Notes: generated by a model not told the origin, from the sequence alone. A stretch of DNA of 64,000 nucleotides from an uncultured Acidobacteriota bacterium (GCA_963804795.1 CAWDRS010000011.1:281228-345227); one strand, 5' to 3'. Shown: positions 5,183-62,724, counted from the stretch's first letter. Made by a program: numbers and translations.

Positions 5183-6026
5183 TCACGCAACAGTATTCGC
5201 AACAGTATTCACCAGCGTTCCGATTGGCTCGATGGTGATGGCAATCTCGTCGCCGGCGGCGAGCGTGAAATCGTCTGGCGGCACGACGCCCGTTCCCGTG
5301 AGCAGCACACAGCCGTGCGGAAAGCTGTTGTCGCGGAACAAGTACCTCGACCAGCTCGCCTGGTTGCCGCTTCATCGACGACAAGGTCGTCCAACCTGCG
5401 AAGACGTTCTCGCCGCTCCGCCGAATCACGAGACGGACCTCGGTCTCGGGCGCGAGCGGGGCCGAGGCGATCAGCACGCACGGACCGAGCCCGCAGCTGC
5501 CGTCGTACACCTTCGCCTGCGGAAGATAGAGTGGATTCTCCCCTTCGATGTCGCGGGAGCTCATGTCGTTGCCGATCGTGTATCCCACGATCGTGCCCTG
5601 CGCGCTGACGACGAGCGCGAGCTCGGGCTCCGGCACGTTCCATGTGGCATCGCGGCGAATGCGGACCGGCTGGCCATGGCCGCGCACGCGATGCGGCGTC
5701 GCCTTGAAGAAGAGCTCAGGGCGCGCGGCATCGTAGACGCGATCGTAGAAGTCGCCCCCTCCTGCCGACTTCGATTCTTCCATCCGCGCCGTGCGGCTCC
5801 GGAAGTAAGTGACCCCCGCCGCCCACACCTCCTGGGATCCGATTGGTGCAAGGAGCCCCCGGAGATCCGGGGTGCCGTCGATCAAGGTTCCGGTTGCGAT
5901 CTGACCCGTCACCCACCCGTGCAGGTCGGCACGATTCACGACGCTGTCCCAGGTCTCACCAGCAAGCCTGAACCAGGCGCCGCCGGACTCGACGAGCACG
6001 GAGCCCGGAAGTTGAAACAATCGCAT
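5183..6026 (-). pseudogene. Fumarylacetoacetate-hydrolase (FAH) family protein, KdaD/XylX-like 2-keto-3-deoxy-pentonate dehydratase candidate, with a +1 frameshift at 5342-5346
   Basis: The N-terminus of ORF 4830..6026(-) is FAH-like up to ..KRQPGELVE. The conserved continuation [53 protein letters not shown] lies in the -1 frame and stops at 5183. The junction on the coding strand is GAG-G-TAC. Confidence 0.8.
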
Positions 6027-6047
6027 GTGGCTAGTCTACTGAATCGC

Positions 6048-6183
6048 GTCGGCGCTCGGCGCTCGGGGCTCGGCGCGTCGGACGGTCGGCGTTCGGCGTT
6101 CGGCATCGGAGCGTCGCCTGTTGGCACGGCCGACCGTGGAGCCCCGACTGCGACTGCCCGAGCGCCGAGCGCCGAGCGCCGGC
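6048..6183. repeat. Long intergenic hairpin whose stem is built from CGGCGCT tandem words
   Basis: The left arm GTCGGCGCTCGGCGCTCGGGGCTCGG (6048-) pairs with the right arm CCCGAGCGCCGAGCGCCGAGCGCCGGC (-6183). The core CGGCGCTCGGCGCTCGG is a perfect 17-nt complement. Confidence 0.8.
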
Positions 6184-6188
6184 AATCG

Positions 6189-7634
6189 TCAGTACTTGAG
6201 ATACGCCGTCTGGATCTCCGTGTAGAAATCGACGGCGACGCCGCCCTGTTCCCGCATCCCCATCGAAGAGGCTTTGGAGCCGCCAAATGGCACGTGGTAC
6301 TCGACACCCGCCGACGGCAGGTTCACCATCACGAGGCCGGCATCGATCCGGTTGATGAACTCGTACGCCGCGGTGAGCGAGCGCGTGCAGATGCCCGCGG
6401 ACAAGCCGAATCGTATGCCGTTGGCGATCTCGATCGCCCGATCGAGGTTCTCGGCGGGCAGCACCGCGAGGACTGGACCGAAAATCTCCTCCTGTGCCAC
6501 GCGCATCGAGGGTGCCACGTCGGTCATGACCGCCGGTGAGGAAAAGTAGCCGCGCGCGTACGCGCCGTCGCTCAGCCGCTCCCCGCCGGTGAGGACGCGC
6601 GCACCCTCACGACTCCCGACGCCGACGTAGTCGAGAACGATCCCGAGCTGTTTGTCGTCGATCGACGGACCAATGTCGATCCCCGACTCGAGGCCGTTGC
6701 CGACCTTGAGCCCCTTCGTCCGCGCGACGAGCGCCTCGGTGAACCGTTCGACGATCGGCGCCTCGACGATCACGCGAGAGGTCGCCGTGCACCGCTGCCC
6801 GGTCGAGAAGAACGCCGCGTTCACGACGACGTTCACCGCATCCGCGACGTCGGCGTCGCCGAGCACGATCGTCGGGTTCTTTCCGCCCATCTCGAGCTGC
6901 ACGCGCGCGCGGCGCTTCGCGGCCTCGATGGCAATCTGGCTGCCGGTCGCCTCGGAACCGGTGAACGAGATCGCTTTGACGTCGGGGTTGGTGACGATCT
7001 CGTTCCCGACCTTCGAGCCGGGGCCGGTGACGAGATTGATGGCGCCCTTCGTGACGCCCGCTTCGTCGAGCGCCTCGACCAGCCGCAGCGCGCAGAGCGG
7101 CGCGAGATCCGACGGCTTCAGCACGACCGCATTGCCCGACACCAGCGCCGGCGCGGTCTTCCACGTCGGAATCGCAATCGGAAAGTTCCACGGCGTGATG
7201 AGTCCGACGACGCCGAGCGGACGGCGGCGGGTCTGGATCAGGACGCGGTCGCGCTCCGACGGCACGTTCTCTCCGCCGAGACGCGCACCCTCGCCGCCGA
7301 TGAAGCGCAGGATGTTGATGGCGCGCCCGACCTCGCCGCGCGCTTCCGGCAGCGTCTTGCCTTCCTCGCGCGTCATTTCGCGAGCCACCTGATCGGCCCG
7401 CGACTCGAGGATGTTGGCGGCACGGTAGAGGATTTCGCCTCGCTTCGGCGCGGGGATCGCCGCCCACGCCGGCTGCGCCGCTTTGGCCGCCGCGATCGCC
7501 TGACGCGTATCCTCTGCGTCGGACTTCTGGAAGGTCGCCACGACCTCGGTCGTGTCGGCTGGATTTCTGGTCTCGAACGTCGCGCCGCCACGCGCGGCGA
7601 CCCACTCGCCCCCGATGAGATTCTTGAAAGTCAT
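6189..7634 (-). CDS. NAD(P)+ aldehyde dehydrogenase, alpha-ketoglutarate-semialdehyde dehydrogenase-like
   Basis: ORF 6189..7637(-). The first listed codon is TTG and the ATG is at 7634. Motifs: ITPWNFP, VVLKPS, FTGS, LEMGGKNP, catalytic FSTGQRCTA, PFGGSK. Confidence 0.9.
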   Translation of the reverse strand: MTFKNLIGGEWVAARGGATFETRNPADTTEVVATFQKSDAEDTRQAIAAAKAAQPAWAAIPAPKRGEILYRAANILESRADQVAREMTREEGKTLPEARGEVGRAINILRFIGGEGARLGGENVPSERDRVLIQTRRRPLGVVGLITPWNFPIAIPTWKTAPALVSGNAVVLKPSDLAPLCALRLVEALDEAGVTKGAINLVTGPGSKVGNEIVTNPDVKAISFTGSEATGSQIAIEAAKRRARVQLEMGGKNPTIVLGDADVADAVNVVVNAAFFSTGQRCTATSRVIVEAPIVERFTEALVARTKGLKVGNGLESGIDIGPSIDDKQLGIVLDYVGVGSREGARVLTGGERLSDGAYARGYFSSPAVMTDVAPSMRVAQEEIFGPVLAVLPAENLDRAIEIANGIRFGLSAGICTRSLTAAYEFINRIDAGLVMVNLPSAGVEYHVPFGGSKASSMGMREQGGVAVDFYTEIQTAYLKY

Positions 7635-7693
7635 CAAACGAGGAGGCTAGCACACTCGTCGGGGTTCGAACGAGCGGGAGGCGCGTCAGGGAT

Positions 7694-8284
7694 TCAGCGC
7701 GCCGGATACCCGGCGTGCGCCTTGATCTCGCGAATCTGCAGGATGTGCCGCTGCGAGTGCGTCGAGATCATGAGGAACCACTGATAGACGTCCATGTTGC
7801 CGTCAATGAGCGCATGCCCGCGCAGATCTTCGCCGGTCGACTTCGCGTACTCGCGCATCGTCGCGCGGCGCTTGCTGAACTCCTCGAGTGGACCCTGCAC
7901 GGTCGGCCATCGTCCGGTCGGTACGCGGGCCTCGCCGGTCTTCTGCCGGTTCGTGCGGTCGATGCCATACCAGAGGATCGCCGCGTCGGTCGCCTCCGGC
8001 TTTGTCGTGACGGGCGCCTTCTTCATGGATTCCTGGACGCTCGTCCAATACTGCCCTTCCGCCACCGCGAGGTGCTCGACGACGTCCGTGATGCTCCAGC
8101 TCTCCGGCGTCATGCGGAATTTCAGCTGCGCCTCGGAAAGACCGCTCACCTCGCTCGCCAGCCACGCCCCGGTCATGTCGAGGTGTGCCAGGAGCCGCTG
8201 ACGGTCGCCCTCTGTCATCCCGGCAGCCACGGCGTGGCTGGAGGTCAGGACAAGACCAAGAATGCATCCAATGAGTGTGCGCAT
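7694..8284 (-). CDS. DinB-superfamily protein with signal peptide
   Basis: Internal ATG at 8284 of ORF 7694..8473(-): MRTLIGCILGLVLTSSHAVAAG.. then SWSITDVVEHLAVAE..ISTHSQRHILQIREIK (DinB-type His residues). Confidence 0.7.
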   Translation of the reverse strand: MRTLIGCILGLVLTSSHAVAAGMTEGDRQRLLAHLDMTGAWLASEVSGLSEAQLKFRMTPESWSITDVVEHLAVAEGQYWTSVQESMKKAPVTTKPEATDAAILWYGIDRTNRQKTGEARVPTGRWPTVQGPLEEFSKRRATMREYAKSTGEDLRGHALIDGNMDVYQWFLMISTHSQRHILQIREIKAHAGYPAR

Positions 8285-18805: not shown

Positions 18806-19076
18806 GACCTCCGTTTGGCGACGGAGGGTGACGGAGGCAGCGGAGACGCTCACAAACGGAGAAACGGGGTCAACGGAGACGAAACGGAGAAGAGGAATCC
18901 AGGGCGCACACAGGCGCTGCTCGCGCGCCCGCCGCAGACGGGCACCCTGCCGCGCTACGCGCGGCGCGAGCAGGCCCCCAGTCCTTCGGCCATTTGAGCC
19001 TTTTCTCCGTTCGTCCTCCGTTAATTCCGTTCCTCCGTTTGTGAACTCCTGTACCTCCGTACCCTCCGTCAGAGAG
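18806..19076. mobile_element. MITE-like element family D, copy D1 (about 70-bp inverted arms made of ACGGAG words)
   Basis: The left arm GACGGAGGGTGACGGAGGCAGCGGAGACGCTCACAAACGGAGAAACGGGGTCAACGGAGACGAAACGGAG pairs with the right arm ..CTCCGTTCGTCCTCCGTTAATTCCGTTCCTCCGTTTGTGAACTCCTGTACCTCCGTACCCTCCGTC. It has no coding capacity. A second copy is at 36186. Confidence 0.75.
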
Positions 19077-19088: not shown

Positions 19089-22000
19089 TCAGAAGAGCAA
19101 CTTCAGCGTGACCTGCACCCTCCTCGCGTAGTTCCGCTGATTGGAGGCGCTGATCGTGCCGAACGCCACCTGGGTCGGTGTCGTGTTCGGGCCCGGAAAC
19201 TGCGGATGGTTCAACGCGTTGATCGCTTCGAGCCGGAACTGCAGCTGCCTGGCGCCCGCGAGCGAGGCATTCTTGATCACGGACAGGTCAACGTTGTTGA
19301 GATTATCGGTCCGCACCGAGTCGAGCCGCAACGGGAACGTCCGGACGTTCGAGCCGAGCTCCTGGCCGGACGTCCTGTTGAAGCCGGCGTCGACATTGAA
19401 CCAGCGCGCCAGGGTCTGGTCACTCCCCGAGAGTCCGATGTTGTCGATGTCGCCGGTGAAGATGAGGTTCCCGAAGCCGATCGGGAACCCACTCTGATAC
19501 GTGTAGATGCCCTGGAACTGCCAGCCGCCGACAATCGCGTCGACGCCGGCCGGCAGATTGGCCCCGAACCGCCGCCCGCGGCCGACGGGCACTTCCCAGA
19601 TGCCGCTGACGGTGAGGCGGTGCGGCACGTCCTGACTGGAGATGCCTTTCCAGGGGCTCGGGTCGGCGGCGTTCAGGAAGTCGATGGCCTCCGTGAAACT
19701 TGAATACGTGTAGTTCCCGCTGAGCGTGTACCCCGCGGAAAACCGCCGCTGGAGGCCGACCTGCAACGCGTGATACCACGACGTCCCTTCGTTGGTCGTC
19801 GTGTTGACGGTGTCGAACTGCGGATACGGGCGGAGCAGCCGTTCCCGGGCGATCGTCTGCGCGCGAAACACGGCGCCCGCCGTCGCCGGCATCAATCCAA
19901 AGAACGGGTTCGGCACGGTCGCGCTCAGATAGTCGATCGTCGCCTGATCGCGGACCGGGCTCGTGCTCAAGTACTGCTGCGGTGTCGCGTTGATGTTCCT
20001 CGATGTCTGGATGTCGGTGCCGTGATTGCCGACATACGACGCCTCCGCCACCCATCGTCCGGGCAACTCACGCTGCAGGCCCACCTGCCACCGCTGCATC
20101 CGGGGCGATTTCGGATTCGGGTCGAAGAAGGTAATGCTCTGCCCGAGGAACGTCTGAATCCCCAGCGCGGCGCCGACCGGCTCCTGGATGCCCGACAGGA
20201 ACGGATTCGACAGCGTCTCGATGAAGTGCAGGCCGTTGTCGAGCGAGGGCGTCAGGTTGGTCGTGGAGCTGAAACCGCTGGTGACGACATCACCCCGCCG
20301 CTGCCCCAGGAACCCGTAGAAGACACCGTATCCTCCGCGGACGACGGTCTTCTCGTTCACTTTATAGGTGGCGCCGAGGCGCGGCATGAAGTTGTTCTTG
20401 GGCGTCTCGTAGAGACCGTGCGGCTGGCCGTCGACGCCGGCGAACGTCACACCGCCCCTGACCTGGAATTGATTGAGGGGCACGCCCGTGGCCGCAGGGT
20501 TCAGCGCCGCACGCGCCGCCGCCTCCATCGGCTGTACGGCACCCGCATCGAACCCGCGAATGCTGTGATTGTCCGCCTCGGCGAGCGGCGTCTCGAGCTC
20601 GTAGCGGACGCCGAGATTCAGCGTCAGCCGCGATCCAAGCCTCCAGTCGTCCTGCACGTACAAGCCGTAGGTCGAAGACGTCTCGTTGTAGCTCGCCGCG
20701 CGCACGACGCTCCCCGAGCTTGGAAGACCGAGCAGGAACGAGGCGAACGACTGGCCGAGCGAGCCTGGTGCGACCGTCGAGTTGTCGAGCGGACCCCGCG
20801 TCCACGTCGCGTCGAAGTTGAACTGCCCGGTCTGATTGTTGGCGAAGAACTCGGAGGTCTCGCGATATCGGCGGAACTCGAGGCCCGTCCTCACGGAATG
20901 GCGTCCGAGCGATTTGTTCAGCGTGGCCAGGAACGAATGGCTCTCGTTCGGCCGGAACTCGCCGCCGAATCCCGTTCCCTGGTAGTTGGCTGTATTGCCG
21001 TTGAGGAAATCGAACCTTGGAAACCGCCGGATGTCATCGGGGATCGCTGCGTTGTACGACGCCGGAAACCCGAGGGTCGTCAGGTCGAAGCCGTGGTTGG
21101 CCGGATTCGTGTCCGTGCCGCGAACGAACCAGTTGTACCGTACCGGAGGTTCAACACGGTCGTGTTGTTGAACACGAGGACATGGTCGAACGCCGCCTGT
21201 CGGGAGATGAACTGAAACCACTCGCCCGTCGCGAGGTTGTTGAAGTAGTTGTTGTAGTTGCTGTTCCGGTCGTACCAGCTGTAGCGGCCGTACAGCCGCT
21301 GCCGATCGCTCACGTTGTGATCGATCCGGATCGTGTTCGTCGCGTATTTGATCGTTTCGGGTAGCGACGGGTTCTGGAAGTTGCTGGTCCCGTCCGTATT
21401 GCCGGCCGTCAGAGGATGCGCGATGTACTCGAGCGCCGCCCGGGCGACCGGGTTGATCAGGCTCTGCGGAATGATGTTTCCAGGAAACGGATCCTGCTGG
21501 AAGCGGCCGTTGCCTATCGACCGGCGGGTGAACGGATTGTAGATCTGGTATTGAGGCCCGAGCGCGAGCAGGTCGGAGAAGTCGCCGTTGCGCATCTTCT
21601 CGGTCGGCACCGTGGGAGTGCCGTTGTTTCGCGGGCGGGCCTCGTGGATCCCTTCGAATCCGTACATGAAGAACGTCTTCCGCCGGCCGTCGTAGCCCGG
21701 AAGGAGGACGGGACCGCCCGCCGTGCCGCCGTAGCGGTTGTAGGTGAAGTCGGCGAGCGGGATGTGGTTGGCGTTGGCGAAGTAGTCGTTGGCGAAGAGC
21801 TTCGACGGGGTCTTGTTGTAGTAGGCAGTCCCATGGAACGCGTTGGTTCCGGCCTTGATGCTGAGGTTCGTCACACCGCCTTCCGTGTTGCCGAAGGCGG
21901 CATCGAACGTGGCCGTCTGGACCTTGAACTCCTGCACGATGTCGGGTGGCGGCACGTAGGACGCGATCACCTCGCCGGCATTGGCTGTCGCGGTGCTCGG

Positions 22001-22622
22001 CACGCCGTCGATCGTCAGATCGCTGCGGTTGCCGCGCGTACCGTCCATCGCGTATCCGACGATGTGGGTCGGCTCGAACGGCCGATCGAGCCGGGGATCG
22101 CCGGTCGCCGACACGCCGCCGGCGAGGCCGATGAGTGCATAGGGGTCACCGTGGGGCGTCGGCAGCTCCGATACGCGTCTCGAGTCCACGACGTTGCCGA
22201 GCGACGACGTGGTCGTCTCGAGAAGCGCCGTCGCGGCGGTGACGGTCACTTCCTCGACAGCACCGCCTACTTCGAGGTCGACCTCGAGCTGGACCCGATC
22301 GGCCACCCGAACTTGAATCCCCTGTCGTGAGGTACTTCTTGAACCCCGCCAGTTCCACCGTGACCGCATACGTGCCGGGGATCAGATAGGGCGCCTCGAA
22401 CAACCCGCCGTCGTTGGTCACGGCGGATACCGTGGTGCCCATGGCCAGGTTCGTGATCGTCACGGTGGCGCCGCCGATGACGCCCCGGCTGGCATCGCGC
22501 ACGGTCCCGCCAATCGTCCCCCGCGCGTCCTGCGCGTGCACTGCGCCGGCAACGAGAATACTCGCCACGCACCCAAGCGCCAGGGCTCGGCACCTCCCGA
22601 ACAGACGTCGACTGATGCACAT
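19089..22622 (-). pseudogene. TonB-dependent receptor with CarboxypepD_reg N-terminal domain, split over three frames
   Basis: ORFs 22146..22622, 21080..22369 and 19089..21221 are consecutive parts of one receptor: a signal peptide plus GTIGGTVRDASRGVIGGATVTITN, then the plug, then a barrel ending ..RRVQVTLKLLF. The shifts are at GGTAC 22331-22335 (+1) and at GTACCGTACCGG 21135-21146 (net +2). Confidence 0.85.
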
Positions 22623-25057: not shown

Positions 25058-27114
25058 ATGAAAAAGCTGCTGCTGCTCGGCCTGGCTGCGAGCCTGACGA
25101 TGTCGTGCTCGCGGGAAGCTGCGCCGCCCGCGCGTGCCGCGACGCCGGCACCCAAACCGCTCACCGCAGGCGTGGACCCGTCGGGGTTCGACAAGTCGAT
25201 CAGGCCTCAGGACGACCTCTACAAGTTCGTCAACAGTGCGTGGCTCGCCAAGACCGAAATCCCGCCCGACCGCGGTGCGTACGGAGGCTTCTACGAAGCC
25301 ATCGACCGCACGCAGGAGCGCCTCCGGGAGATCGCCGAAGAGGCCTCGAAAGCGGCCAACAAGACGCCGGGATCCGACCAGCAGAAGCTCGGTGACTTCT
25401 ACGCGTCGTTCATGGACGAGGCACGCGTCAACCAGCTGGGCAAGGCGCCACTCGAGCCGGAGCTCGCGCGGATCGACGCGCTCGCGAGCAAAACAGATCT
25501 GTCCCGCCACATGGCTCGCATGCTGATGCTCAACATGACGACGCTCGTCTCCGGCGGCGTGGACGGCGACGCACAGGATCCCGGAACGTCGGTGCTCTAC
25601 CTCGCGCAGAGCGGCCTCGGCCTCCCGGATCGCGACTATTACCTGAAGGACGATCCGAAGCTGAAAGAGTACCCGGACGAAGTACCAGGCCTACGTGGCG
25701 AAGATGCTGACGCTGGCCGGACAGCCGTCCCCGGACGCCGCCGCCAAGGAGATCGTCGCCTTCGAGACGCGACTCGCGCGCGCGCATTGGACGAACGTCG
25801 AGAGCCGCGATGCCGTCAAGACCTACAACAAGGTCACGATGGCCGATCTGCCGAAGCGCTTCCCCGGCATCGATTGGACCGTGTGGGCTCGCGAGCTCGG
25901 CGTCGACAACGTCAAGGCGGTTGTCGTCGCGCAGCCCAGCTATTTCAAGGCGATGTCCGCAGCGGTCGCGGAACTGCCAGTCGATCGCTGGAAGCCGTAC
26001 ATCAAGTTCCACACCGCCAGCGATCTCGCGCCGTATCTGAACAAGGAGTTCGTCGAAGCGCGCTTCGATTTCTACGGCCGCACCCTCCAGGGCGTCAAGG
26101 AGATGCTGCCGCGGTGGAAACGTGCGGTCAACAATCTCGACACCGTGCTCGGCGAGCTGCTCGGCAAGGTGTACGTCGAGCAGCACTTCAAGCCGGATGC
26201 CAAGGCACGGATGGAACACCTGGTCGAGAACCTGCGCGCGGCCTTCCGCGAAGCGATCGACAAGTCGGACTGGATGGGGCCCGACACCAAGAAGGAAGCG
26301 CAAGCCAAGCTCGCCGCCTTCCGCCCCAAGATCGGGTACCCGAGCAAATGGCGTGACTACTCGAAAGTGGAGATTCGGCCGGATGATCTGGTCGGCAACA
26401 TGATACGCGCCTGGATGGCCGACAGCATCTACCAGCTGGGAAAGGCAGGGAAACCCGTCGATCCCGAAGATTGGGGCATGACGCCGCAGACGGTCAACGC
26501 CTACTACAACGCGGTGCGCAACGAGATCGTCTTTCCAGCCGCCATCCTCCAGCCGCCCTTCTTCGACCCCGACGCCGACGACGCGGTGAACTACGGGGGC
26601 ATCGGCGGCGTCATCGGCCACGAGATGGGGCACGGCTTCGACGACCAGGGACGCCGCTACGACGCGAAGGGACAGCTGCGCGACTGGTGGACCGCCAAGG
26701 ACGCCGACGAGTTCACGAAACGGGCGAAGGGGCTCGTCGCTCAGGTACTCAGCGATGGAAGCGTTGCCCGGCCTCAAGGTCAACGGCGAGCTGACGCTCG
26801 GCGAAAATATCGGCGACCTGACCGGCGTCACGATCTCGCATCGGGCGTACGAGCTCTCGCTCGGCGGCAAAGAGCCGCCGACGATCCAGCGGACCACGGG
26901 CCTTCAGCGGTTCTTCTACGGCTGGGTACAGGCGTGGCGAGCGAAATCCCGAGACGACGCCCTGCGCCAGCAGGTCATGAGCAACCCGCACGCGCCGGAC
27001 ATGATGCGGGGCAACGGTCCTCTTCCGAACGTCGCGGCGTTCTACAGCACGTTCGACGTGAAGGAAGGCGACAAACTGTGGCTGGCGCCGGATCGCCGGG
27101 TGAAGCTCTGGTAG
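25058..27114 (+). pseudogene. M13 (neprilysin/PepO) zinc metallopeptidase lipoprotein, split over three frames
   Basis: ORFs 25058.., 25695.. and 26755..27114 join to one M13 enzyme (lipobox LTMSC, NAYY, VIGHEMGHGFD, GENIGD). The shifts are at GAGTACCC 25667-25674 and CAGGTAC 26742-26748, each +1. Confidence 0.85.
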
Positions 27115-34740: not shown

Positions 34741-36151
34741 TCAGCGCGCCAGCCGCGGCGCCGGCCGGGAAGAGCCGACACGGCTCATCTCGGTCCCCTT
34801 CGTCGTCACGAAGTACTTCGCCAGCATGTTGGGCCGCTCCCAGGCCGGGAGCGCACTTCGATTCCTCAGGTACTCCAGGAAGTTGTTGGTGACCTGTGCG
34901 AAGTGGGCCTCGTGACCGACGCGGAAGGCGTCGGGAATGCCGACGTGGATCTCGGCCCCGCGATCCTCGACAGTCACGCCGGGATACTGCGCTTGGAGCG
35001 CCGAGATCTTCTTCTGGACGGCCGCCAGCACCTGAGGCTTCTCAGCGGCGCGAGTCGGGATCACGTAGAGCTCCGGGCGGAAACGATCGGCCTGTCCCTG
35101 GCGGATCTCGACGCGAGCCCTTGTCCCACGATAGAACGCGAAGTGGGTGTCACCGGATCCCGCCGGCGGCTCCCAGTCCCAGATCACATTCAGCTTCGTG
35201 TGGATGCCTCGCAGCGAGTACGCGACGAGCGTGTTGCAGAAGTACATCGAGGTTCTGACCTTTCACGGCCGAGCCCAGGCTGTCGGGGAAACGTGGCTCG
35301 CGTGTCACGCGCTGGAAATCCTGCTGCGAGATCGTCGTCGGCCAGCGCTGTGCCGCGAGGACCTGGATATCCTTGCGATAGTCGATGGCCGTGTCAGGAA
35401 AGAGCGTCCACTGCACGAGATCCACCAGATGCGTCCCGATGTCGTTCAGCCCTTCGCCTTGCTCGGACGTATCGAAGAACCAGGGTGGCCGGATGTTCGG
35501 AGCGCCAGAGACCACCTTCATGAGGTAGTGGACGCTCTCCATGTAGACGCCGGGATCGGCGTCCGTCCCGGGAACGATCTCCCCGAACGCCGCCGGATCG
35601 TTCACGAGCGCTCGCTGCAGTATCGAGGTAATCTCGAACCGCTCCGTCATGATGTCGTAGGCGACGACACCTCGCTTGTCCGCTTCTGCGAGCGTCGCCT
35701 CGAGCTTCGGAAGGTCGTCGGACTTGAGGATCCACGGCTTGTCGCCGAGCACGTTCAAGCCGGCGCTCACCGAGGCGGCGATCCGGTCGATCTTCACGCG
35801 GTTGCGTCCCGAGAGCATGACCACGTTGCCTGGCCGCTCCCGGAGCATGCGCTCGAAGTAGTCGGGACTGGTGTGGACGTCCAGGTCCCACGATGTCGGA
35901 TGATCACCGCGATGGTTGTACGCGGAGATGCGGTTCAGGTGCTCGATCAGGTCGGGTCCGAGCGGCGCGAAGACGTCGACGCGCGGCGCCACGCCGGGAT
36001 ACATCTCTTTCTGGACGAGGGCGGCGTGGAAGTGCCCCGGGTCGAGCGTCATCAGTCGGACCTGAGCCATCGAACGGCCGCCCTCCTGGGCGGCGAGGAG
36101 CCCGCCGCCGACGACGGCGGCCGCGACCAGAACAGGGAGCCTGGATCTCAT
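34741..36151 (-). pseudogene. Gfo/Idh/MocA-like oxidoreductase with putative-oxidoreductase C-terminal domain, +1 frameshift near 35242-35246
   Basis: ORF 35150..36151(-) ends ..[12 protein letters not shown]. The continuation [24 protein letters not shown].. lies in ORF 34741..35247(-). The junction on the coding strand is GAT-G-TAC. Confidence 0.8.
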
Positions 36152-36185
36152 TGCAGGTCGAACTATAGCAGCCCCGTGCGGGTGT

Positions 36186-36418: not shown

Positions 36419-36561
36419 AAACCTCATCACCTGTAGCCGGCCGCCGCCAGGAGCGCTGCGCAGTCGTAGAGGCCGCCGTTGGCCACGACCAGACGCGCCG
36501 TCCGGATGTTGGAGATCTCTTCGGCGCATCACGCTGTGGCATTCCACCGCATCTTACAACT

Positions 36562-37409
36562 ATGCTTGCAGGGTTCCCGCGCATCCCCATGAACGTCCCT
36601 CGCCCTGCCGCTCGTTTTCGTGCGCTTGTCCTGACGGCCGTCGCCGTGGTCGGACTCGGCGCGGTGACGCTGGCCCAGCGCCGCAACTTCGGAGGGTTCG
36701 GGGATCGGGGCCGGCCACCCGAGATCCTGCCCAATATCCCGTACGACGGCCGCTTCACGTTCGTCCGCGTGAGCTACGACACGGCGCCCGGCGGCTACTG
36801 GTACCGGGGATTGCCCTCGTGGGCTCACGGCTATCCGGTTGCCGAGCGCAACCTCATGAAGATCATGAACGAGCTCACGTTCCTGCACGCCCACGACGAG
36901 GGCGTGAACACGATGACGCTCGACGACCCGCGACTCTTCGAGTATCCCGTCGCATACATCATCGAAGTCAGCTGGTGGACGATGACCAGCCGGCAGGGTG
37001 AAGCGCTCCGTGAGTACATGAAGAAGGGCGGCTTCGTGATCGTGGACGACTTCAAGGCGGATGGCGACTTCGGCAGTCCCGGCTGGGCGCCGTTCGAGGC
37101 GAACATGGAGCGCGTGCTGCCCGGAGCACGGTTCGTCGAGATGAAACCGTCGCACCCCATCTTCCACTCGTTCTTCGAGATCGAGGCGCTCGATCATTTT
37201 CCACAGGCCTACAACGCCGGCCCGCCCAGCTTCCTCGGACTCTTCGAGGAGAACGACCCTTCCAAACGTCTCCAGATGATCGTCAACTACAACACCGATA
37301 TCTCGCAGGTACCTGGGAGTGGTCCGGACAAGGGATCCGCCCGATAGACGACACGAACGAGGCGTACAAGCTCGGAGTCAACTACATCATCTACGGTCTG
37401 ACGCACTAG
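36562..37409 (+). pseudogene. DUF4159 family protein, +2 frameshift at GGTACC 37308-37313
   Basis: ORF 36562..37347 is DUF4159-like up to ..NYNTDISQ. The conserved C-terminus YWEWSGQGIRPIDDTNEAYKLGVNYIIYGLTH* lies in the +2 frame and ends at 37409. The junction reads CAG-G-TAC-C-TGG. Confidence 0.8.
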
Positions 37410-37572: not shown

Positions 37573-40225
37573 ATGACACGAGCGCGCCTGGCCGCCACTC
37601 TCGCTCTCATCTCTTCCGTACTCGTCGCCGCATACGCCCGGCAGCCGGCACCCGATTCAGTCAGCTCCGTCATCGATGGACTGACGTTCAGGAACATCGG
37701 CCCGTTTCGCACGGCAGCGTGGGTGACGGAGGTCGCCGTCCCTGAATCTCCCCTGCACGACCACCTCTACACGATGTACGCCGCCACACGCAGCGGAGGT
37801 CTGTGGAAGACGACGAACGCCGGCACGAGCTGGTCGCCGATCTCGGACAGCGTCGGCGCGGCTGCCGTCGGCGCTGTCGCCCTCGCCCCCTCGAACCCCG
37901 CGATCGTGTGGATGGGCACAGGCGATCAAGCCAATGCGAGGTCGTCGGTACTCAGGCAAAGGCCTGTTCAAGTCGATGGACGGGGGCGCGACGTGGCAGT
38001 CCGTGGGCCTCACGGACTCGCATCACATCGCCCGGATCGTCATCCACCCCACGAACCCCGAGGTCGTCTACGTGGCAGCGATGGGCCACCTCTTCTCCAG
38101 GAACGCGGAGCGCGGCGTCTTTCGGACGACTGACGGGGGAGCCACCTGGAAGAAGGTCCTCTACGTCAACGACGGCGTCGGCGCGATCGATCTCGTCATC
38201 AACCGGCAGACGCCGTCCGTCCTCTACGCCGCGTTGTACGACAAGGAACGCCGTCCCTGGCAGATCGTCGAGAGTGGCCCGGAGAGCGGCATCTACCGGA
38301 CCGCCGATGCCGGCGACACCTGGCAGCGGCTCGGCGGCGGGTTGCCTGCGGGCAGAATCGGCCGGATCGGGCTAGACCTCTATCAGAAGAACCCGCGCGT
38401 ACTCTACGCGCTCCTCGAGAATCAGAACCCGAAGCCAGGCGCCGCCGGAGGCGAAGTCAGCGCGACGCGTCCACTGGCCGGAGGCATCGTCGGCAACGAG
38501 CTGTATCGAACAGACGATGGAGGCGGGACGTGGCGGCGGGTGACGGACGTCAACGTCGCCGGAGGCAAGGCGCCGTATTCCTTCAATCAGCTCCGCATCA
38601 ACCCCCACGACGACCAGACGGTCATCGTGACCAGCGATTCGATGTACATCACCAGGGACGGCGGAAAGACGTGGGACACCGGTTTCTTCCGCGGTGTGTT
38701 CGGGGACTTCCGCTCGATGTGGTGGGACCCCGACAATCGCGATCGGATCATCCTCGGCAGCGACGGCGGCGTCAGCGTATCCGTCGACGGTGGCCGTACC
38801 GGTGACTACTTTCCCAACATGGGCATCGGCGAAGCGTACGCGCTCGGCGTGGACATGGACGATCCGTACAATGTCTACGCTGGCTTTCAGGACCATGATT
38901 CCTGGAAGGGCCCGAGCAACAGCCCGACCGGCCGCATCACGCTCGAACACTGGGTCACCGTCGGTCCCGGCGACGGTATGTACAACGTTGTCGACCCGAC
39001 CGACACCCGCTGGGTGTACAACACGCGCGAGCTGAATCAGCTCGGCCGGATGGATCAGCGGACGGGTGTGCGCACGAACATCGCGCCCACACGCCCGCCG
39101 GATCGCCCGCGGCTGCGGTACAACTGGATTGCTCCCATCGCACTCTCGCCCGAGGACCCTCGGACGCTCTATGCCGGCGCACAGCTGCTCTTCCGCTCGC
39201 GTGACCGCGGAGACACCTGGGAGGAGATCAGCCCTGACCTCACGACGAACGATACCGCCAAAACGGGGTTGAACGTGCCTTACTGCACGATCACGTCGAT
39301 TGCGGAATCGCCGCTCCGCGCAGGGGTCATCTGGGTCGGCACGGACGACGGGAAGGTGCAGCTCACGCAGGATCAGGGAGAGCGGTGGACCGACCTGACG
39401 CCCGCACTCGTTGCCGCCGGCGCGCGCGCCGATCGGTGGGTCAGCCGGGTGTTCGCGTCGCCGCACGATCCGGCCACCGCGTTCGTCGCAAAGAATGGCT
39501 TTCGGAACGACGACTTCGCGGCCTATCTGTATCGGACCGCGGACTATGGCCGAACCTGGACGAGCGTTGCCGGCGACCTTCCCGCCGCGCCTGTCAACGT
39601 CGTGGTGCAGGATCGACGGAACCGTCAGCTGCTGATCGTCGGCAACGACATCGGCGTGTTCGTGTCGATCGATGGCGGCGCACGTTGGCACCGGCTGAAG
39701 GGGAACCTTCCGACCGTCGCGGTGCACGACCTGACGATCCATCCGCGAGAGAACGACCTCGTGATTGCCACCTACGGCCGCGCGCTGTGGACTGGAGACA
39801 TCACGCCGCTCCAGGAATTATCCGGGGAGATCTTGAATCGCGCCGCCTATCTCTTCGACATGGAGCCTCGAGCACGATACGGCTTCAGCACGCAGGGGAT
39901 GAACTACCACCTCTTCGGCGACAAGTATCTGGAGGTGCTGAACGAGCCGGAGGCGCTGGTGGTCAACTACTACCTCGGCGCGGATGCGGCAGCCGAGGCA
40001 CGGATCGTCGTGTCGAACGCGGCGGGTCAGACCGTGCGGCGCGTGGACGGCCCGGCGAAGAAAGGCCTGAATCGGGCCCTCGTCAGCCTGGGTGGCGGGG
40101 GCGGCCGCGGGCGAGGAACCACCGCGATGCCCCCCCTGCCCGTCGGCGACTACAGCGTGACGGTCGACGTCGCCGGTGCCACGCTCACGAAGAGCGCGAG
40201 GGTGCGAGCTCGGATAGGTATCTGA
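37573..40225 (+). pseudogene. Sortilin/Vps10-type BNR (Asp-box) beta-propeller protein, +1 frameshift at 37947-37951
   Basis: ORF 37573..38133 (signal peptide, ..WMGTGDQANARSS) continues in ORF 37934..40225 (YSGKGLFKSMDGGATW.., repeated S/T-x-D-G-G-x-T-W boxes). The junction is TCG-G-TAC. Confidence 0.85.
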
Positions 40226-47256: not shown

Positions 47257-48796
47257 CTACTCGATCGACTTGGCCAGCACTTCCTTTACCCGCGTGCGCA
47301 CCAACTCGGCTGTCGCCGGTTCCCGAAAGGTGGCGCGTTCCCGGCCACCCGGCACCGTAAGCGGGTGCAGGCGGCCGCGCAAGACCGGCAGCTGCACCTC
47401 CCGACTGGCCAGCCAGGCAGCCTCACCGCCTTTACGCGCAAATTGGGCCCTTGAATAGATAATGAAGTGCGTTCGCGGGTTCCGCGCCGCCAGGTACGCA
47501 AAAAAGAGCAACAAGCGCTCCTCGGCCACGTCCAACAGATGCTCGGCAATCACAGGATCACTCTTCGCGACCCGCTCGTCCAGAAGGCAGGACAGATGGC
47601 TGACTATTAGATCCGGGTTTTCGAGAAGCACCTGCTCCTCGCGATGCCAAACAGCGCTCGTGTTCTCTTTGCGGATCGCGACCGGCAACACCCGCAGCGC
47701 GTCGGTCACATCGTCCGCATTGGTGCCTCCCTCTTTCTCGGTTCGAGGATCGGTACACCCGGCCGGGAAGTGGTGAGTCCATGAGCACGATCACGGGCCG
47801 CGGGTTTGGAGGCGGCCCCGCTTCTCGCGTCGACCACCACTGTATGCCCAAGAGCGCACAGACGACCGCCAGGGCGGTTGCCCACGCTCCATGGAGGATC
47901 CAGGTCCGGCGGCCGGGCGGACCCGCGAGATGAACGCCGAGATCCTCTTCGGCCCATCGGATTTCGCGCACCATATCGGCAGCGTCCTGCCACCGATCGT
48001 TCGGATCCCGAGCAAGGCATGCGGAGATTATTCGATCGAGTGCAGGCGCAAGGTGCGGGTCGACGTCCGAGGCTCGCGGCCGCGTATCCGCAAGTATGGC
48101 TGCCACCTGTGACGCACCGGACGACCCGCCGAACGCCCGTCGTCCCGTAGCCATTTCGAACAACACCGACCCGAAGGCAAAGAGATCCGTCCGGCGATCG
48201 ACAGGCGCTCCTTCCAGCTGCTCCGGCGCCATGTACGGCACCGTACCGATCAAACCGCCGGCGACGGTCGGCGAACCGGTCACGGTCTTGCCGACACCAT
48301 CTGGCGCCGGCTCCGTGACCACGACCTGCTTGGCGATTCCGAAATCGAGTAACTTGACCCCGTTTCGCGTCAGCATCACGTTGGAGGGTTTGAGGTCCCG
48401 GTGGACGATCCCCGCCCGGTGCGCAGCCACGAGCGCCTCGCCGACCCCGATCGCGACCGCGAACAGCTCAGGCAGTGGCAACGGACCCCGGCCCAGCCGA
48501 GCCTCCAGTGTTTCGCCGTCCAGATACTCCATCACCAGGAAGTTGTCGGCCGCGAAGCGGCCGACGTCGTAAACGCTGCAGATGTGAGGGTGATTCAGGG
48601 CGGCGATCGCGCGGGCTTCGCGTTCGAAACGGAGACGCGCTTGCGGATCTTCGGCCTGGTCGCTGCGCGTCACCTTGATGGCCACCGTCCGGCCAAGGCG
48701 GGGGTCTCGGGCGCGATACACCTCGCCCATGCCACCAGCGCCAAGGTGGCTGACGATCTCGTACGGGCCAAGCATGGTTCCCGCGGAGAATGTCAT
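47257..48796 (-). pseudogene. Hanks-type Ser/Thr protein kinase with one TM segment and an unknown C-terminal domain, +1 frameshift at 47752-47756
   Basis: ORF 47558..48796(-) has GAGGMGEVY, VAIK, HRDLKPSN, DFG and APE, then the TM segment WATALAVVCALLGIQWW, then ..LPGRVY. The continuation DPRTEKEGGTNADDVTDALRVLPVAIRKENTS.. is ORF 47257..47709(-). The junction on the coding strand is GTG-TAC-C. Confidence 0.85.
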
Positions 48797-48912
48797 GTGC
48801 GCAAGCGGGAGTAAGTGGGCGTAGTTTACTCCGTCGGCAGCCGACGCGGGCCTCCAGGGAGGGGCACCGCGCGCATGTTAGCATCGGCCATTCAGGATGA
48901 ACGGGAGGACAC

Positions 48913-49383: not shown

Positions 49384-49437
49384 GGCGCCCGACGTTCGGT
49401 GCGACCGCTCGTGGTGCCGACCTGGCATGGCCAGAGG

Positions 49438-49625
49438 CTAGAACGTATCTCACAAATGCTGCGCGAGCGAGCACGGCGAGCGAGCCACCCGACCGGCCCG
49501 CCTTCGCGCCGCAGGCGCTACGGCGAGGTCTCGCCGTAGCTTTAGCGGAGGCGGAAGCGCGCCGGCGAAGCGGCGCGCGAGAGAGCGTGTAGGGGAGTCC
49601 GAGGGGCGAAGCCCCTCGGCTCAGG
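49438..49625 (-). repeat. Repeat family A, copy A4 (long form)
   Basis: TAGAACGTATCTCACAAATG...GAGGGGCGAAGCCCCTCGG, with the ~55-bp internal module CGGCGAGGTCTCGCCGTAGCTTTAGCGGAGGCGGAAG. Confidence 0.9.
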
Positions 49626-50868
49626 CTAGTAGCCGCCCGCGTGGATCAAGCGTCCGTAGGACCGGCCGGCGACCCCGGCGAAGCCGTAGTCAGCGGTTTG
49701 CACCGACGCGTCGTGTATGAGCTTCGACATGATGATGGAAGGCGCCCCCTGACATTGTAGGGTGGCGATGCAGAGCGCCGCCGTGCCGGCGACGTGGGGC
49801 GACGCCATGCTGGTGCCGGAGATCGTGTTGTAGCCGCCCCCCTTCCAGGTCGACAAGATGCATACGCCAGGCGCAGCAATCGTGTGACCTTCGTCTGAAC
49901 TGCCGGGAAGCGTGTAGTTACTGAAATCGGCCGACGTGTCGTCCGCGTCGGACCGGCAGGTGGCGGTCGCCCCGGCGCCTGGCTGTCCGTTGAAGTCGGC
50001 CACGGCCGTCACGGCCAACACTTCTCTGTACGCCGCAGGCGAGAAGCCCGCCAGGTTCGCGTTGTCGTTGCCTGCGGCCACAACGTAGGTCACTCCGGCG
50101 GCGACCGAGCGACAGATCGCCTTGTGCAGGGCATCCGCATTGCTGTTCCCACAATTACCATCGTCGGAGCCGCCACCGCCTAGGCTCATATTGGCGACCT
50201 TGATCTTGAGGTTCGACGCGTTCGCGGTGACCCAATCGATGCCGCAAATCACCGATGACCAGGTGCCGGAGCCCTGGTTGTTGAGAACTCGGACCGAGTA
50301 GATCGGGATGCCCGGCGCCACGCCCACGACGCCGGCGCCATTGTTGATCGCGCCGATCGTCCCGGCGACGTGAGTCCCGTGACCGTTCCCGTCGGCGAAG
50401 CTCTTCCCAACCGAGCAGTTCTTGCCGCCGGCGATGTTCAGATCGGCATGCGGTCCGCTGCCCGTGTCGATGACCGCGACCGCGAGGTCCCAGGAATTCG
50501 ACGAGAACTGCGTGCTGAACCTCTGCGTTGATTCGGTCGACGCCGGTTGGCACGGTCTGCGCGACCGCCTCTACGGGCCGGTCGTCGGAGACGAATGCCA
50601 CTCGGGGATCGCGCTGAACGTCACCGAGCCTCGCCTGCGGAATCCTCGCGGCGTATCCCCTCAACGCGCTGTGATAGAGCTGAGAGACGCTCGCGCCGTA
50701 CGCCCGGCCGTGCTCCGCCGCCAGGCCGTCGACATCGGCCTCGTCATCGTGGAAGACCACGATGACATCGCGCGCGGATTGTGGCGGAGGCCCGGCTTGG
50801 CCCATCAGAGTGAGCCGTGTCCCGGCAAGAACGGCGGCAATCGAAACCGTAATGGCGATTCGTCTCAT
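49626..50868 (-). pseudogene. S8 subtilisin-family serine peptidase with I9-type propeptide, +1 frameshift between about 50480 and 50545
   Basis: ORF 50155..50919(-) supplies the signal and propeptide up to ..VPTGVDRINAE. The catalytic part (VAVIDTG, HGTHVAG, GTSMASPHVAG) is in the frame of ORF 49626..50327(-). There is no GTAC in the junction. The best candidate site is GAG-G-TTC. Confidence 0.8.
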
Positions 50869-51201
50869 GACATCCTTCGAAAGGGAGCACGTCACAGTCG
50901 GGACTCCGGGCGTATCCAAGAAGGTCCGCGAACCGATTCGTAGCTGGCTCTATATGGTCCGCCGCTCCGTCAGCAACGAACGTTCCACCGCGCGTGCAAC
51001 GCCGCAAGGCGTTCAGTGCAAGCCGATAACACGTGGTTATCGAGGCGCTTGGAACGAACGAAGCAGATCAACGGGGTGACACCTGCAGGACCAAGTCCAC
51101 TCGCGGGCTGACTATTCTCTGTCGCTGTTCGACAGTTCCGAATTGCATTGGGAGATCGATGACGAGCCCGAATTATTCGGCCGGATGCATATGGCCAGGT
51201 G

Positions 51202-52221: not shown

Positions 52222-52424
52222 CTAGAAGCCGTCTCATAAACCTGCCGCTCGTTTCACGACGCGAGCGAACGACAGTGAGCGAGCCACGCGAGCGGCCCGC
52301 CTTCGCGCCGCAGGCGCTACGGCGAGGTCTCGCCGTAGCTTTAGCGGAGGCGGAAGCGCGCCGGCGAAGCGGCGCGCGAGCGCGCGTGTCGGGGAGTCCG
52401 AGGGGCGAAGCCCCTCGGATGAGG
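52222..52424 (-). repeat. Repeat family A, copy A5 (long form with the CTAGAAGCCGTCTCATAAACCTGC end module)
   Basis: It aligns with A4 and A7, and its left end is the reverse complement of the A3 tail at 4806-4832. Confidence 0.9.
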
Positions 52425-52700
52425 CTAAGTGGTCGCCGCGAAGCGCTCGCGGGATCGTTCGCGCGCCTTGCGCGCTTCTTCCTCGCGGTTGCGTGGCTGA
52501 GCGGTGGTCGTCAGAGAACTGATCAGGCGATGCGCGGCGGCGGTCACCTCCTCGACGGCCCGGTCGAAGACTTCTTCATTGGCGCGCGATGGACGGGTCG
52601 TCCCGCTCAGCTTTCGAACGAACTGCAGCGCGGATGCGCGGATCTCGTCGTCGGTTGCCGGCGGCGCGAAATTGGCGAGCGTCTTGATGTTGCGGCACAT
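52425..52700 (-). CDS. DUF2277 family protein
   Basis: MCRNIKTLANFAPPATDDEIRASALQFVRKLSG matches the family's conserved N-terminus as I remember it. Confidence 0.75.
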   Translation of the reverse strand: MCRNIKTLANFAPPATDDEIRASALQFVRKLSGTTRPSRANEEVFDRAVEEVTAAAHRLISSLTTTAQPRNREEEARKARERSRERFAATT

Positions 52701-58340: not shown

Positions 58341-58469
58341 TTAGAACGTATCTCACAAATGCGGCGGGAGCGAGCACCGCGAGCGAGCCACGCGAGCGGA
58401 GCGCGCCGGCGAAGCGGCGCGCGAGAGCGCGTGTAGGGGAGTCCGAAGGGCGAAGCCCCTCGGCTGAGG
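58341..58469 (-). repeat. Repeat family A, copy A6 (short form)
   Basis: TTAGAACGTATCTCACAAATGCGGCGGGAGCGAGCACCGCGAGCGAGCCACGCGAGCGGAGCGCGCCGGCGAAGCGGCGCGCGAGAGCGCGTGTAGGGGAGTCCGAAGGGCGAAGCCCCTCGG. Confidence 0.9.
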
Positions 58470-58534
58470 TTGGTGTTCATACCACGCCGCGGCGGCCCAT
58501 GATTGCATCGGTCCGGCGGCCGCTGCAACGGTTG

Positions 58535-60681: not shown

Positions 60682-60699
60682 GGCTGCGGTTGTTTGATG

Positions 60700-60883: not shown

Positions 60884-60921
60884 CATGACCTCGAAGAAAG
60901 GCGTGCTGGGAACGTGAACGG

Positions 60922-61308
60922 TCAAAGAGTGTCAGCGCGCACACGTTTGCTCGCGATAAGCGCAGCAACGCGTAGCACAATCGCACTCAGCAAGACCGAC
61001 ACTGGCGGAACGACGAGGAATGCAAACGCCGGCTGCGGCCTCGGAGGCCCAAACGCTACGTAACCATAAGTCCCGAGGCTGTCGAGGGTGACGACGAACA
61101 TCAGCGCATAGAGCGCCGTCCGTGTGAGCGCCGACCACTGCTTCGACATCGCGTCGGCCGCTGCGAGCGCGACGAACGGGATCAGCACCCAGATCACAAA
61201 GACCGCCATCAGAAGTGCGGAGGGATTGCGGCGGCCGGTGTACAAGGTCAAACCAACCGAGCCGAGGCCTCCAATTGCAATGGCGACTAAGCCTGCCGTG
61301 CGCAGCAA
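60922..61308 (-). CDS. Hypothetical integral membrane protein (TTG start)
   Basis: Four hydrophobic spans. The TTG at 61308 has GGGAG 7 nt upstream. Confidence 0.5.
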   Translation of the reverse strand: MLRTAGLVAIAIGGLGSVGLTLYTGRRNPSALLMAVFVIWVLIPFVALAAADAMSKQWSALTRTALYALMFVVTLDSLGTYGYVAFGPPRPQPAFAFLVVPPVSVLLSAIVLRVAALIASKRVRADTL

Positions 61309-61311
61309 CGG

Positions 61312-61581
61312 TTATCTCCCACCCGTCACATCGATGAACGCGCCCGTCGTAAACGACGCTTCGCCTGAGAGCAGCCACAGGATGGCGGGCGCGACTTCCT
61401 CCGGCCTTCCGCCACGCTTCATCGGTACGGAGGACTTGACCCGATCGACGCGGTTTGGTTCGCCGCCGCTGGCGTGCATCTCAGTGTAGATGAAGCCGGG
61501 GCGAACCGCGTTCACGCGGATGCCCTCCTCGGCGACTTCGTGAGCAAGACCGATCGTCAACGTGTCGACCAGCCGGTTCAC
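61312..61581 (-). pseudogene. C-terminal fragment of a short-chain dehydrogenase/reductase (SDR)
   Basis: ..LAHEVAEEGIRVNAVRPGFIYTEMHA..GRPEEVAPAILWLLSGEASFTTGAFIDVTGG is the last third of a classical SDR. The Rossmann TGxxxGxG and catalytic YxxxK regions are missing upstream. Confidence 0.7.
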
Positions 61582-61793
61582 TGGACGACCGTCAGCATGG
61601 CTACGACGAGTCCGGTGCTATGAGCAAGGATGTTGGCCAGAAGGTCGCGTCTCCACAGATAGAAGAGTGTCATCAGGCGCTCGGAAACCAGCACGAAGAG
61701 AGGGGGGCCCGCGAGCGCCACGAGGAGTGTGAGACTCGTCGCGGGACTGACCGAGCCGGCCGCCGGGCGCCTTACGACCGCGATACGGGCCTC

Positions 61794-62724
61794 CTATGCC
61801 GTGCGCCGACCGGCGTCCAGCGGCTGCCGAAGCAGATGTCTCAGCGCCCACTCAGGTCTACCTGGGGCCTCCTCCAGACCCCCGACGGCACAGGCGATCA
61901 TCCACGCCCAATAGACGGGGATCAGCAGCTCCCTTTCGACCTCGCTCAACACTGACTCCTCCTCGTAGCCCTCGAGAAGATCCGCGTCCCGACCGCGCCA
62001 TGACAGCACGAAGTCGGCGATGCGCAAGTCCAGGTGGGTCACGTCGAAATCGAAGACCGCAGACAACCGACCGCCTGCGTACCTGATGTTCCACGGCGTC
62101 AAGTCGCCATGGATGACTGTTGCGGCCGGTGCGCTCGGCATGAGCTCGTCGAGGCGTCGTCTCGTCGCGTCGGCGTACTCGAGGAGGATTCGACCGGCTT
62201 CAGGATCCCGGCGAGCGTACTCTCCGGAGCACCGTCTCCGCGGGGCGCTTCCCACGGCGATCGAAGAGGCCTTCCGGCGCGGTCCGCCACCTGTCGCGCT
62301 GGCCAAGGTGTGTCAGCCCGGACAGATCGACGTGCAGACGTGCCAGGAGCCTGCCGCGCGCGCGCTGCTCGGCGCGTCGGCCCGAGGCCGATCTGGGTGC
62401 CGGGCTGCGGCCCGGCAGATACGGGAACACACACCAACTTCCCGTCGCCTCGTGCGCAACATCAGCGAGCGGCGCAGCAACGGGCCACCCCCGGCTCCGC
62501 AGATGGCGGAGCACGGAGTGCTCGTACGCAATCTCTGCGGGGCTGCACTCCGGTGCATAGCGCCTCAGCACTACCTGCTCACGGCCCGTCCGCACGATCC
62601 AATGCGTGTTCCTGCCGGTCTTCACCCGCCGGATCGATGACGCGACAATGCGGAACCGGCGCAAGGCGCCCTGGCAGCACTGCACGCCGTGTCTCCCCTC
62701 CTTCGTCGACATGAGCTTGTCCAT
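61794..62724 (-). pseudogene. Aminoglycoside-phosphotransferase/homoserine-kinase-II (APH) family kinase, +1 frameshift at 62217-62222
   Basis: ORF 62200..62724(-) is the N-lobe and ORF 61794..62306(-) carries VIHGDLTPWNI and FDFD motifs. The junction on the coding strand is CGG-AGA-G-TAC. Confidence 0.75.

Follow-up and report, generated by a model that had tools for sequence, protein, structure and literature searches.

This work concerns a stretch of 64,000 nucleotides (nt) from an uncultured Acidobacteriota bacterium (GCA_963804795.1, CAWDRS010000011.1:281228-345227), called the window throughout, in which nine of about 50 genes (18%) are interrupted by changes of reading frame. There are 11 break sites in total, and ten of them are found within 3 nt of the tetranucleotide GTAC (within about 7 nt in the gene of the APH-family phosphotransferase). 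We conclude that the breaks are probably consensus errors of long-read sequencing that are specific for this genome and linked to this motif, and that their likeliest cause would be a DNA modification at GTAC or at the longer palindrome AGTACT. Judged from the comparison of sequences, it is very likely that the breaks are an artefact of one kind or another, i.e. not mutations of the organism; as to what produced the artefact, we lean with some reservation towards a DNA modification. An earlier reading of the same DNA (the original prediction) had described nine broken genes with ten of 11 breaks at GTAC and considered the association to be beyond chance. It is: only 3% of the window lies within 3 nt of GTAC, the probability of finding at least 10 of 11 breaks there is about 6e-15, and the position of the breaks is now given by alignments with relatives.

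The window has a GC content of 65.4% and contains 190 GTAC sites, i.e. one per 337 bp, which agrees with the earlier estimate of about one per 340 bp; its composition predicts about 205 sites. Changes of frame were traced over the 64 kb by codon-position GC combined with a codon-usage Viterbi path, and many gapless, same-strand changes of coding frame were found across the window. The Viterbi switches other than the breaks described below (at about 2860, 11190, 30262, 53859, 59135, 59962 and 61579) were rejected as frameshifts, as Pfam scans of the remaining ORFs showed each of them to be a gene boundary flanked by complete domains. When the bases proposed earlier are removed, the fragments are joined into single long open reading frames (ORFs), with repaired lengths of 280 amino acids (aa) for the FAH-family hydrolase, 1176 for the TonB-dependent receptor, 684 for the M13 peptidase, 469 for the Gfo-like oxidoreductase, 281 for the DUF4159 protein, 883 for the BNR/sortilin-like protein, 512 for the Ser/Thr kinase and 309 for the APH-family phosphotransferase. 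In each of these eight repaired proteins the Pfam domain match runs unbroken over the junction. The repaired TonB receptor covers positions 2-838 of 838 of the OMP_b-brl_4 profile, the M13 peptidase covers Peptidase_M13_N (1-381 of 381) as well as Peptidase_M13 (1-205 of 205), and the DUF4159 gene product covers positions 4-202 of 202 of its profile, while the remaining matches are to FAA_hydrolase, Oxidoreduct_C, Sortilin/BNR, Pkinase and APH. The claim that removing the proposed base restores the frame is thus upheld by fused fragments and continuous Pfam matches. Outside GTAC only one further frame break was found in the 64 kb, in a gene of an S8 subtilase. The break sites are listed in Table 1.

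Table 1. Break sites and intergenic repeats of the window (positions counted from its first nucleotide; square brackets mark where a surplus base lies)
Feature	Position	Strand; gene or orientation	Description
FAH-family hydrolase break	5342..5346	minus; gene ~5186-6026	coding strand GAG[G]TAC, +1; probable true context AGTACT
TonB-dependent receptor break b	21135..21146	minus; gene ~19089-22620	one-base deletion 3 nt past a GTAC
TonB-dependent receptor break a	22331..22335	minus	coding strand AAGTAC[C]TCA, +1; probable true context AGTACT
M13 peptidase break a	25669..25674	plus; gene 25058-27114	GAGTAC[C]CGG, extra C 3' of GTAC
M13 peptidase break b	26743..26748	plus	CA[G]GTACTC, extra G 5' of GTAC; probable true context AGTACT
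Gfo-like oxidoreductase break	35242..35246	minus; gene 34741-36151	plus strand GTAC[A]TCGAG; true context AGTACT
DUF4159 break	37308..37313	plus; gene 36562-37409	CAG[G]TAC[C]TGG, net +2; true context AGTACT
BNR/sortilin-like break	37947..37951	plus; gene 37573-40225	GTC[G]GTACTCA, extra G 5' of GTAC
Ser/Thr kinase break	47752..47756	minus; gene 47257-48796	plus strand GATC[G]GTACAC, extra G 5' of GTAC
S8 subtilase break	50518..50521	minus; gene ~49626-50868	one extra base in GAG[GTTC]AGC; only break not at GTAC
APH-family phosphotransferase break	62217..62226	minus; gene 61794-62724	one extra base within CGGAGAG/TAC, coding strand; exact base ambiguous
GC-rich ~150-nt element	3248-3400, 4590-4805, 49439-49630, 52272-52429, 58342-58474, 62786-62981	both orientations	twice in tandem at 4606-4805
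Tandem intergenic repeats	33515-33799, 44768-44975, 44991-45418		units ~107 nt x3, ~104 nt x2, 143 nt x3
ACGGAG-rich direct and inverted repeats	18827-19044, 36183-36419		arms 46-106 nt, 75-89% matched

The strongest evidence comes from the same species. The best homolog of the kinase, 95% identical and of exactly the repaired length, is encoded by L083 and L084, two JGI metagenome contigs that come from different samples. They are 96-98% identical to the window at the nucleotide level over 36.6-49.4 kb and therefore belong to the same species. Their gene calls contain an intact BNR protein of 883 aa and an intact kinase of 512 aa, and L083 also has a DUF4159 protein of 281 aa, a call that continues past the end of the fetched locus. 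Over the 12.3 kb aligned to these contigs, the sole frame-changing differences in coding sequence are the extra bases of the window at 37308/37313, 37947 and 47752. At the BNR break L083 (98% nt identity) reads GTC-GTACTCA, and it was this contig that settled the position, as the match in PDB was too distant to place the junction and a large representative search gave nothing more; at the kinase break both contigs read GATC-GTACAC. The absence of the breaks from the same species elsewhere is therefore a direct observation for 37308, 37313, 37947 and 47752, while the remaining sites are placed by more distant relatives. Two run-length differences were also seen in intergenic DNA without GTAC: at 47221 the window has CC and both contigs have CCC, and at 48861 the window and L083 have GGGG and L084 has GGG. 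Either difference could be a polymorphism or a run-length error of the ordinary kind.

The more distant relatives were found by scanning a genome collection with the repaired Gfo-like protein, and they are metagenome-assembled genomes (MAGs) of Vicinamibacterales (Acidobacteriota), the best at 88% aa identity. Many of them belong to the Microflora Danica long-read project, and the closest public relatives are MAGs from nanopore reads only (R10.4.1), with Flye as the assembler and a single round of Medaka polishing (PMC12313526). One contig, L001, is syntenic to 24.3-49.4 kb of the window at about 80% nt identity. In the 18.5 kb that could be aligned, frame-changing coding indels occur only at GTAC, i.e. 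at 25672, 26744, 35246 and 37308/37313, and at the homologous positions GTAC is intact in L001. In the M13 gene (82% nt identity) L001 reads GAGTA-CCGG at break a and CA-GTATTC at break b, and the one-base gaps at 25672 and 26744 are the only two in the alignment of the whole gene. At 35246 we could also use L002 and the short-read-style MAG contig L003, and all three read GTA[CT]-TCGAG, the sole internal gap in each alignment of the Gfo gene. The +1 predicted here at 35242-35246 is thereby placed at GTAC as proposed, but its identity has to be corrected: the extra base is not a G but an A at 35246, which the coding strand shows as a T on the 5' side of GTAC.

The DUF4159 site was predicted to carry two extra bases, one on each strand, and the comparison with L001 and L083 agrees: both read CAGTACTGG, and in the window each strand carries one G too many on the 5' side of GTAC, which gives GGTACC in place of GTAC. 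The exact 27-mer with both extra bases had no match in the JGI metagenome contigs, which fits a private artefact, although it is a weak argument on its own. A read error confined to one strand would produce just such a doubled G at a palindrome, and it is very unlikely that two independent mutations did so.

For the two outermost genes the frame is given by proteins. In the FAH homologs of L018 and L009 (59-60% identity) the residues LVEYL continue over 5342-5346 without a gap, and the APH homologs (61-77% identity) show V-L-x-x-Y-A-[RS]-R-D-P, likewise gapless, over the junction. The +1 predicted for APH at 62217 stands, and the choice of the base remains ambiguous in the stretch given in Table 1. 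In the TonB-dependent receptor, for which 120 full-length homologs of 70-86% identity were compared, the +1 at 22331 is confirmed, as the homologs read GFKKYSRQG over the junction and the DNA of L081 and L082 is without one base exactly there. The second break of this gene was taken for a +2, and it is in fact a one-base deletion. The coding strand of the window reads CGGTACGG-TACAAC and that of relatives CGGTATGGCTATAAC; L081 has CGGTATGGCTATAAC and L082 has CGCTATGGCTACAAC (GG-C-TA vs GG-TA in the window), so that the window is one base short, and all of the 20 closest homologs are one residue longer, with the residues R-Y-G-Y (RYG[YF]N). The statement that the window contains only insertions, 13 extra bases and no deletions, is accordingly wrong at 21135-21146.

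The break in the S8 gene, which the original prediction had not located, differs in that no GTAC is present anywhere in 50100-50600. The Inhibitor_I9 propeptide and the Peptidase_S8 domain sit in different frames; after repair, subtilisin structures align without a gap, and a comparison with 12 homologous DNAs leaves a single column, at 50521, that is occupied only in the window. Another candidate for this break, at about 55.4 kb, was rejected as an ordinary boundary between PAP2 and Gfo/Idh/MocA genes. The S8 region as such (49387-51199) has no counterpart in L084, where an unrelated gene of 746 aa is found between the same flanking genes (503-2898 of L084), and it is therefore a strain-variable island.

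The lesions at GTAC show a preference for context and symmetry between strands. AGTACT sites are affected in 5 of 13 cases and other GTAC loci in 5 of 176 (about 3%; Fisher P = 1.4e-4), and when the events are read on the strand that has the extra base 5' of GTAC, the base following GTAC is T in 8 of 10 (P = 1.3e-4). AGTACT as the sole motif was nevertheless rejected, given that eight such sites are intact and five error loci lie in other GTAC contexts. The side of the extra base is evenly divided between five plus-strand and five minus-strand events, coding and template strands are hit alike, and there is no link to gene orientation. The errors are tied to no coding strand and to no codon position, which fits the earlier view that the process acts on DNA and not on translation. 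The kinds of lesion vary between +G, +T and -1, a mix to be expected if a signal is miscalled, but not if a single biochemical event is at work. The true runs at these breaks comprise only 1-2 bases (G to GG, GG to GGG, C to CC), and in one event a T is inserted beside G. It had also been pointed out that only a subset of GTAC sites is affected, and this is correct at about 6%, even though one of the in-frame examples given, 7857-7860, is really at 7847-7850. Compared with the conspecific L083, three of 40 true GTAC sites have indels.

The breaks do not behave as lesions of genes that have been abandoned. Past the break and in the repaired frame, the kinase differs from that of L083 by 25 synonymous and 8 non-synonymous changes, and the BNR gene by 20 synonymous and 19 non-synonymous changes, with a ratio of non-synonymous to synonymous rates (dN/dS) of roughly 0.1-0.3. 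The repaired genes are under purifying selection downstream of the breaks, with changes biased towards synonymous ones. Relatives served as a further control: in 1.47 Mb of their loci, candidate +1 frame switches containing GTAC numbered 63 against 62.7 expected, a count that comes from a crude scan based on GC at third codon positions, which is noisy, flags many gene boundaries, misses breaks with a short downstream part and was used as an aggregate control only. GTAC is therefore not generally tied to frame changes in the clade, in as far as relatives that may not share the sequencing pipeline of the window can serve as an indirect control. Low-quality relatives of nanopore style have insertions in G runs at random places. 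We also observed that candidate frame switches, counted per 10 kb, are 3-4 times more frequent than in the window in five relatives of this style (L082, L006, L069, L062 and L035), and that at 6037-7981 of L082 the gene of SdhA (succinate dehydrogenase flavoprotein) is cut in three by GG to GGG insertions away from GTAC.

Taken together, the extra bases occur in this assembly alone, are tied to a palindrome, are found on either strand and are of varied kinds, and 18% of genes are broken, which argues for assembly errors rather than mutations; the agreement of repaired and conspecific lengths and the mostly synonymous changes past the breaks argue in the same direction. A genome with 18% of its genes broken would, by extrapolation from the window, hardly be viable. 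The contig comes from a bacterium of the Vicinamibacterales (Acidobacteriota). A contig of 64 kb from a soil acidobacterium implies long reads, and the reads behind this assembly were most probably long reads of native DNA, probably from nanopore sequencing. The platform, the modification and what happens in single reads are things that we infer, and the scheme we have in mind is as follows. At some GTAC sites, and at AGTACT above all, reads of one strand would be called with one surplus base just 5' of GTAC, usually a second G and once a T, and in one case a nearby base would be dropped instead. As GTAC is palindromic, the error could arise on either strand or on both (GGTACC), and it would be retained by polishing where enough reads carry it. 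Behind this we suppose a modification of GTAC or AGTACT by the organism itself, one with which the model of the basecaller or polisher copes poorly. The specificity of the errors for one genome and one motif makes an organism-specific DNA modification the likeliest cause, and the otherwise clean window and the intact GTAC of relatives point to one at GTAC/AGTACT. Of the two causes that the original prediction offered, the systematic miscalling of long reads at a motif that contains GTAC is thus the better supported, by conspecifics without the extra bases, the site hit on both strands, purifying selection and the lack of an excess in relatives, while a real insertion process targeted to the motif is disfavoured by the strand-symmetric double event, the mixed lesions and the constrained genes.

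It is interesting to compare the window with known types of errors and systems. Earlier work has documented systematic errors of nanopore reads that are bound to a motif and persist after polishing, and has ascribed them to modifications unfamiliar to the basecaller (PMC10687267; PMC12392509). In Listeria they lead to modification-linked assembly errors at GCAGC and GCTGG (Chiou et al. 2023, PMC10687267), and methylation-induced errors have also been reported in outbreak typing (PMC11610573). The errors of the window are similar in that they follow one short motif, occur in particular genomes, would survive Medaka-type polishing and are revealed by close relatives. They are different in that the published errors are overwhelmingly substitutions, while those of the window are single-base indels at about 6% of the motif sites. 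Errors of homopolymer length are another well-known class in long reads; they also split genes by one-base indels, and in most events of the window a run of G or C has become one base longer. The GG to GGG insertions in the SdhA gene of L082 are the classical form of this error. In the window, however, the runs have only 1-2 bases, the errors are tied to GTAC and not to run length, and there are essentially no such errors elsewhere in the contig. As to the enzymes, systems of the RsaI, Csp6I and CviQI type recognise GTAC, and those of the ScaI type recognise AGTACT. The same palindrome marks the errors of the window, AGTACT being the most error-prone, and by this analogy a GTAC/AGTACT restriction-modification system would be the natural candidate for the supposed modification. 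The difference is that there is no such gene in the window, GTAC is not depleted and the errors also occur outside AGTACT.

There are several points that speak against the explanation favoured here. With errors at only about 6% of the GTAC sites and eight AGTACT sites left unharmed, the cause must be partial or strongly dependent on context and coverage. There is no excess of mismatches at GTAC in the comparison with L083 (3.1% inside, 2.4% outside), i.e. the effect is confined to indels, and GTAC is not avoided in the window (190 sites vs 209 expected from a Markov model, observed/expected 0.91). Among the approximately 50 genes of the window there is no DNA methyltransferase, restriction or Dnd-type gene, and the only methyltransferases are of the small-molecule type (Methyltransf_11/25). 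The contigs L083 and L084 can be taken as independent of the window, not as error-free. In the published cases modification-mediated nanopore errors are mostly mismatches, and indels are ascribed to homopolymers (PMC10687267); an excess of substitutions near the modified base, as in these cases, was not found here, where the excess is in indels only. A literature search found no report of GTAC-linked insertion errors, and the Nanomotif paper mentions neither GTAC nor Acidobacteria.

The main rival is a k-mer bias of basecaller, assembler or polisher at some (A)GTAC(T) sequences, which would be independent of modification and specific for a pipeline or chemistry (e.g. a polishing model that does not match the data). 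Such a bias would readily account for a signature of indels only, unlike the mismatch-dominated errors at modified motifs, for the strong dependence of the errors on flanking bases, and for a window in which no methyltransferase is seen. We still consider it unlikely. A pure bias should affect every assembly made by the same pipeline, yet L001 has GTAC intact at the homologous sites, and the relatives, many of which are nanopore-only MAGs, show no excess at GTAC, even if the pipeline of the window may differ from theirs.

A variant of the modification hypothesis, to which we give rather little credence, is that the indel-only signature of about 6% penetrance, free of mismatches, reflects not ordinary base methylation but a partial modification at G-TAC/AGTACT in Vicinamibacterales that disturbs the movement of the strand and not the level of the current, e.g. 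one of the DNA backbone, or, less likely, that it reflects a real insertion targeted to GTAC. A backbone modification marks only a fraction of its motif sites.

Real and very recent mutations of this strain, caused by a process directed to GTAC (a nick or cut at G^TAC followed by faulty repair) and inactivating the genes, appear very improbable. The bases are present in the given sequence, the conspecific contigs show only that they are absent from other strains, and the frame-changing differences are all tied to one palindrome of the restriction type, which would suit such a process. On the other hand it would have to explain how nine genes in about 50 were lost, at a density of roughly 170 lesions per Mb, without any sign of relaxed selection past the breaks, and the symmetric GGTACC would need two events at one site. 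The fill-in of a G^TAC cut would yield a +2 duplication of TA (GTATAC), and this was never seen; the lesions found are heterogeneous (+G, +T, -1), and the inserted allele of the DUF4159 site is absent from the JGI metagenome contigs. Genome decay in a wider sense has in common with the window that many neighbouring genes are frameshifted. Its usual marks, i.e. lesions of mixed kind at unrelated positions that are accompanied by relaxed selection and shared among relatives, contrast with the window, where the lesions follow one motif, are private and lie in genes that are constrained. Finally, programmed recoding at GGTAC, with a +1 shift by the ribosome or slippage during transcription and full-length proteins still being made, might be suggested by the net +1 of most breaks and their place next to a Tyr codon, but it can practically be dismissed. 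The extra base may stand on either side of TAC and on the coding or the template strand, a symmetry that effectively refutes it; one of the events is a deletion; the conspecific and other orthologs of these genes are uninterrupted and in a single frame; and nine unrelated gene families have no common slippery signal.

If the breaks are motif-linked assembly errors, roughly every fifth gene of the genome would be mis-annotated as fragments or a pseudogene, at roughly 170 errors per Mb that could be predicted from one motif. Gene counts, pseudogene calls, estimates of completeness and metabolic reconstructions would then be distorted for this MAG and for others with the same modification. The errors could be corrected in silico, because relatives supply the right frame. 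The motif would in addition be a free read-out of an active GTAC/AGTACT modification system in an uncultured lineage of Acidobacteriota, and motif-linked errors of long reads would have to be looked for among indels as well as among substitutions. Most likely, then, the frame breaks at GTAC are a problem of assembly quality and not a biological feature; they would add no new biology and are of relevance to the quality control of MAGs.

A few other features of the window are worth describing. The tetranucleotide CTAG is strongly under-represented, with 17 occurrences against 49 expected from the Markov model. Beside the APH gene, a minus-strand ORF (61315-61617) corresponds only to the C-terminal third of a short-chain dehydrogenase (adh_short_C2, 151-234 of 236) and looks like the remnant of a truncated gene. 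Three kinds of intergenic repeats were noticed, and their positions are included in Table 1. A GC-rich element of about 150 nt occurs in six places, its copies being 90-98% identical, and by its sequence it looks like a repeat of the REP (repetitive extragenic palindromic) or MITE (miniature inverted-repeat transposable element) type. The tandem unit of about 104 nt also matches L001, beside its M13 gene, and the conspecific L083. The ACGGAG-rich repeats are located upstream of the TonB receptor gene and of the Gfo and DUF4159 genes.

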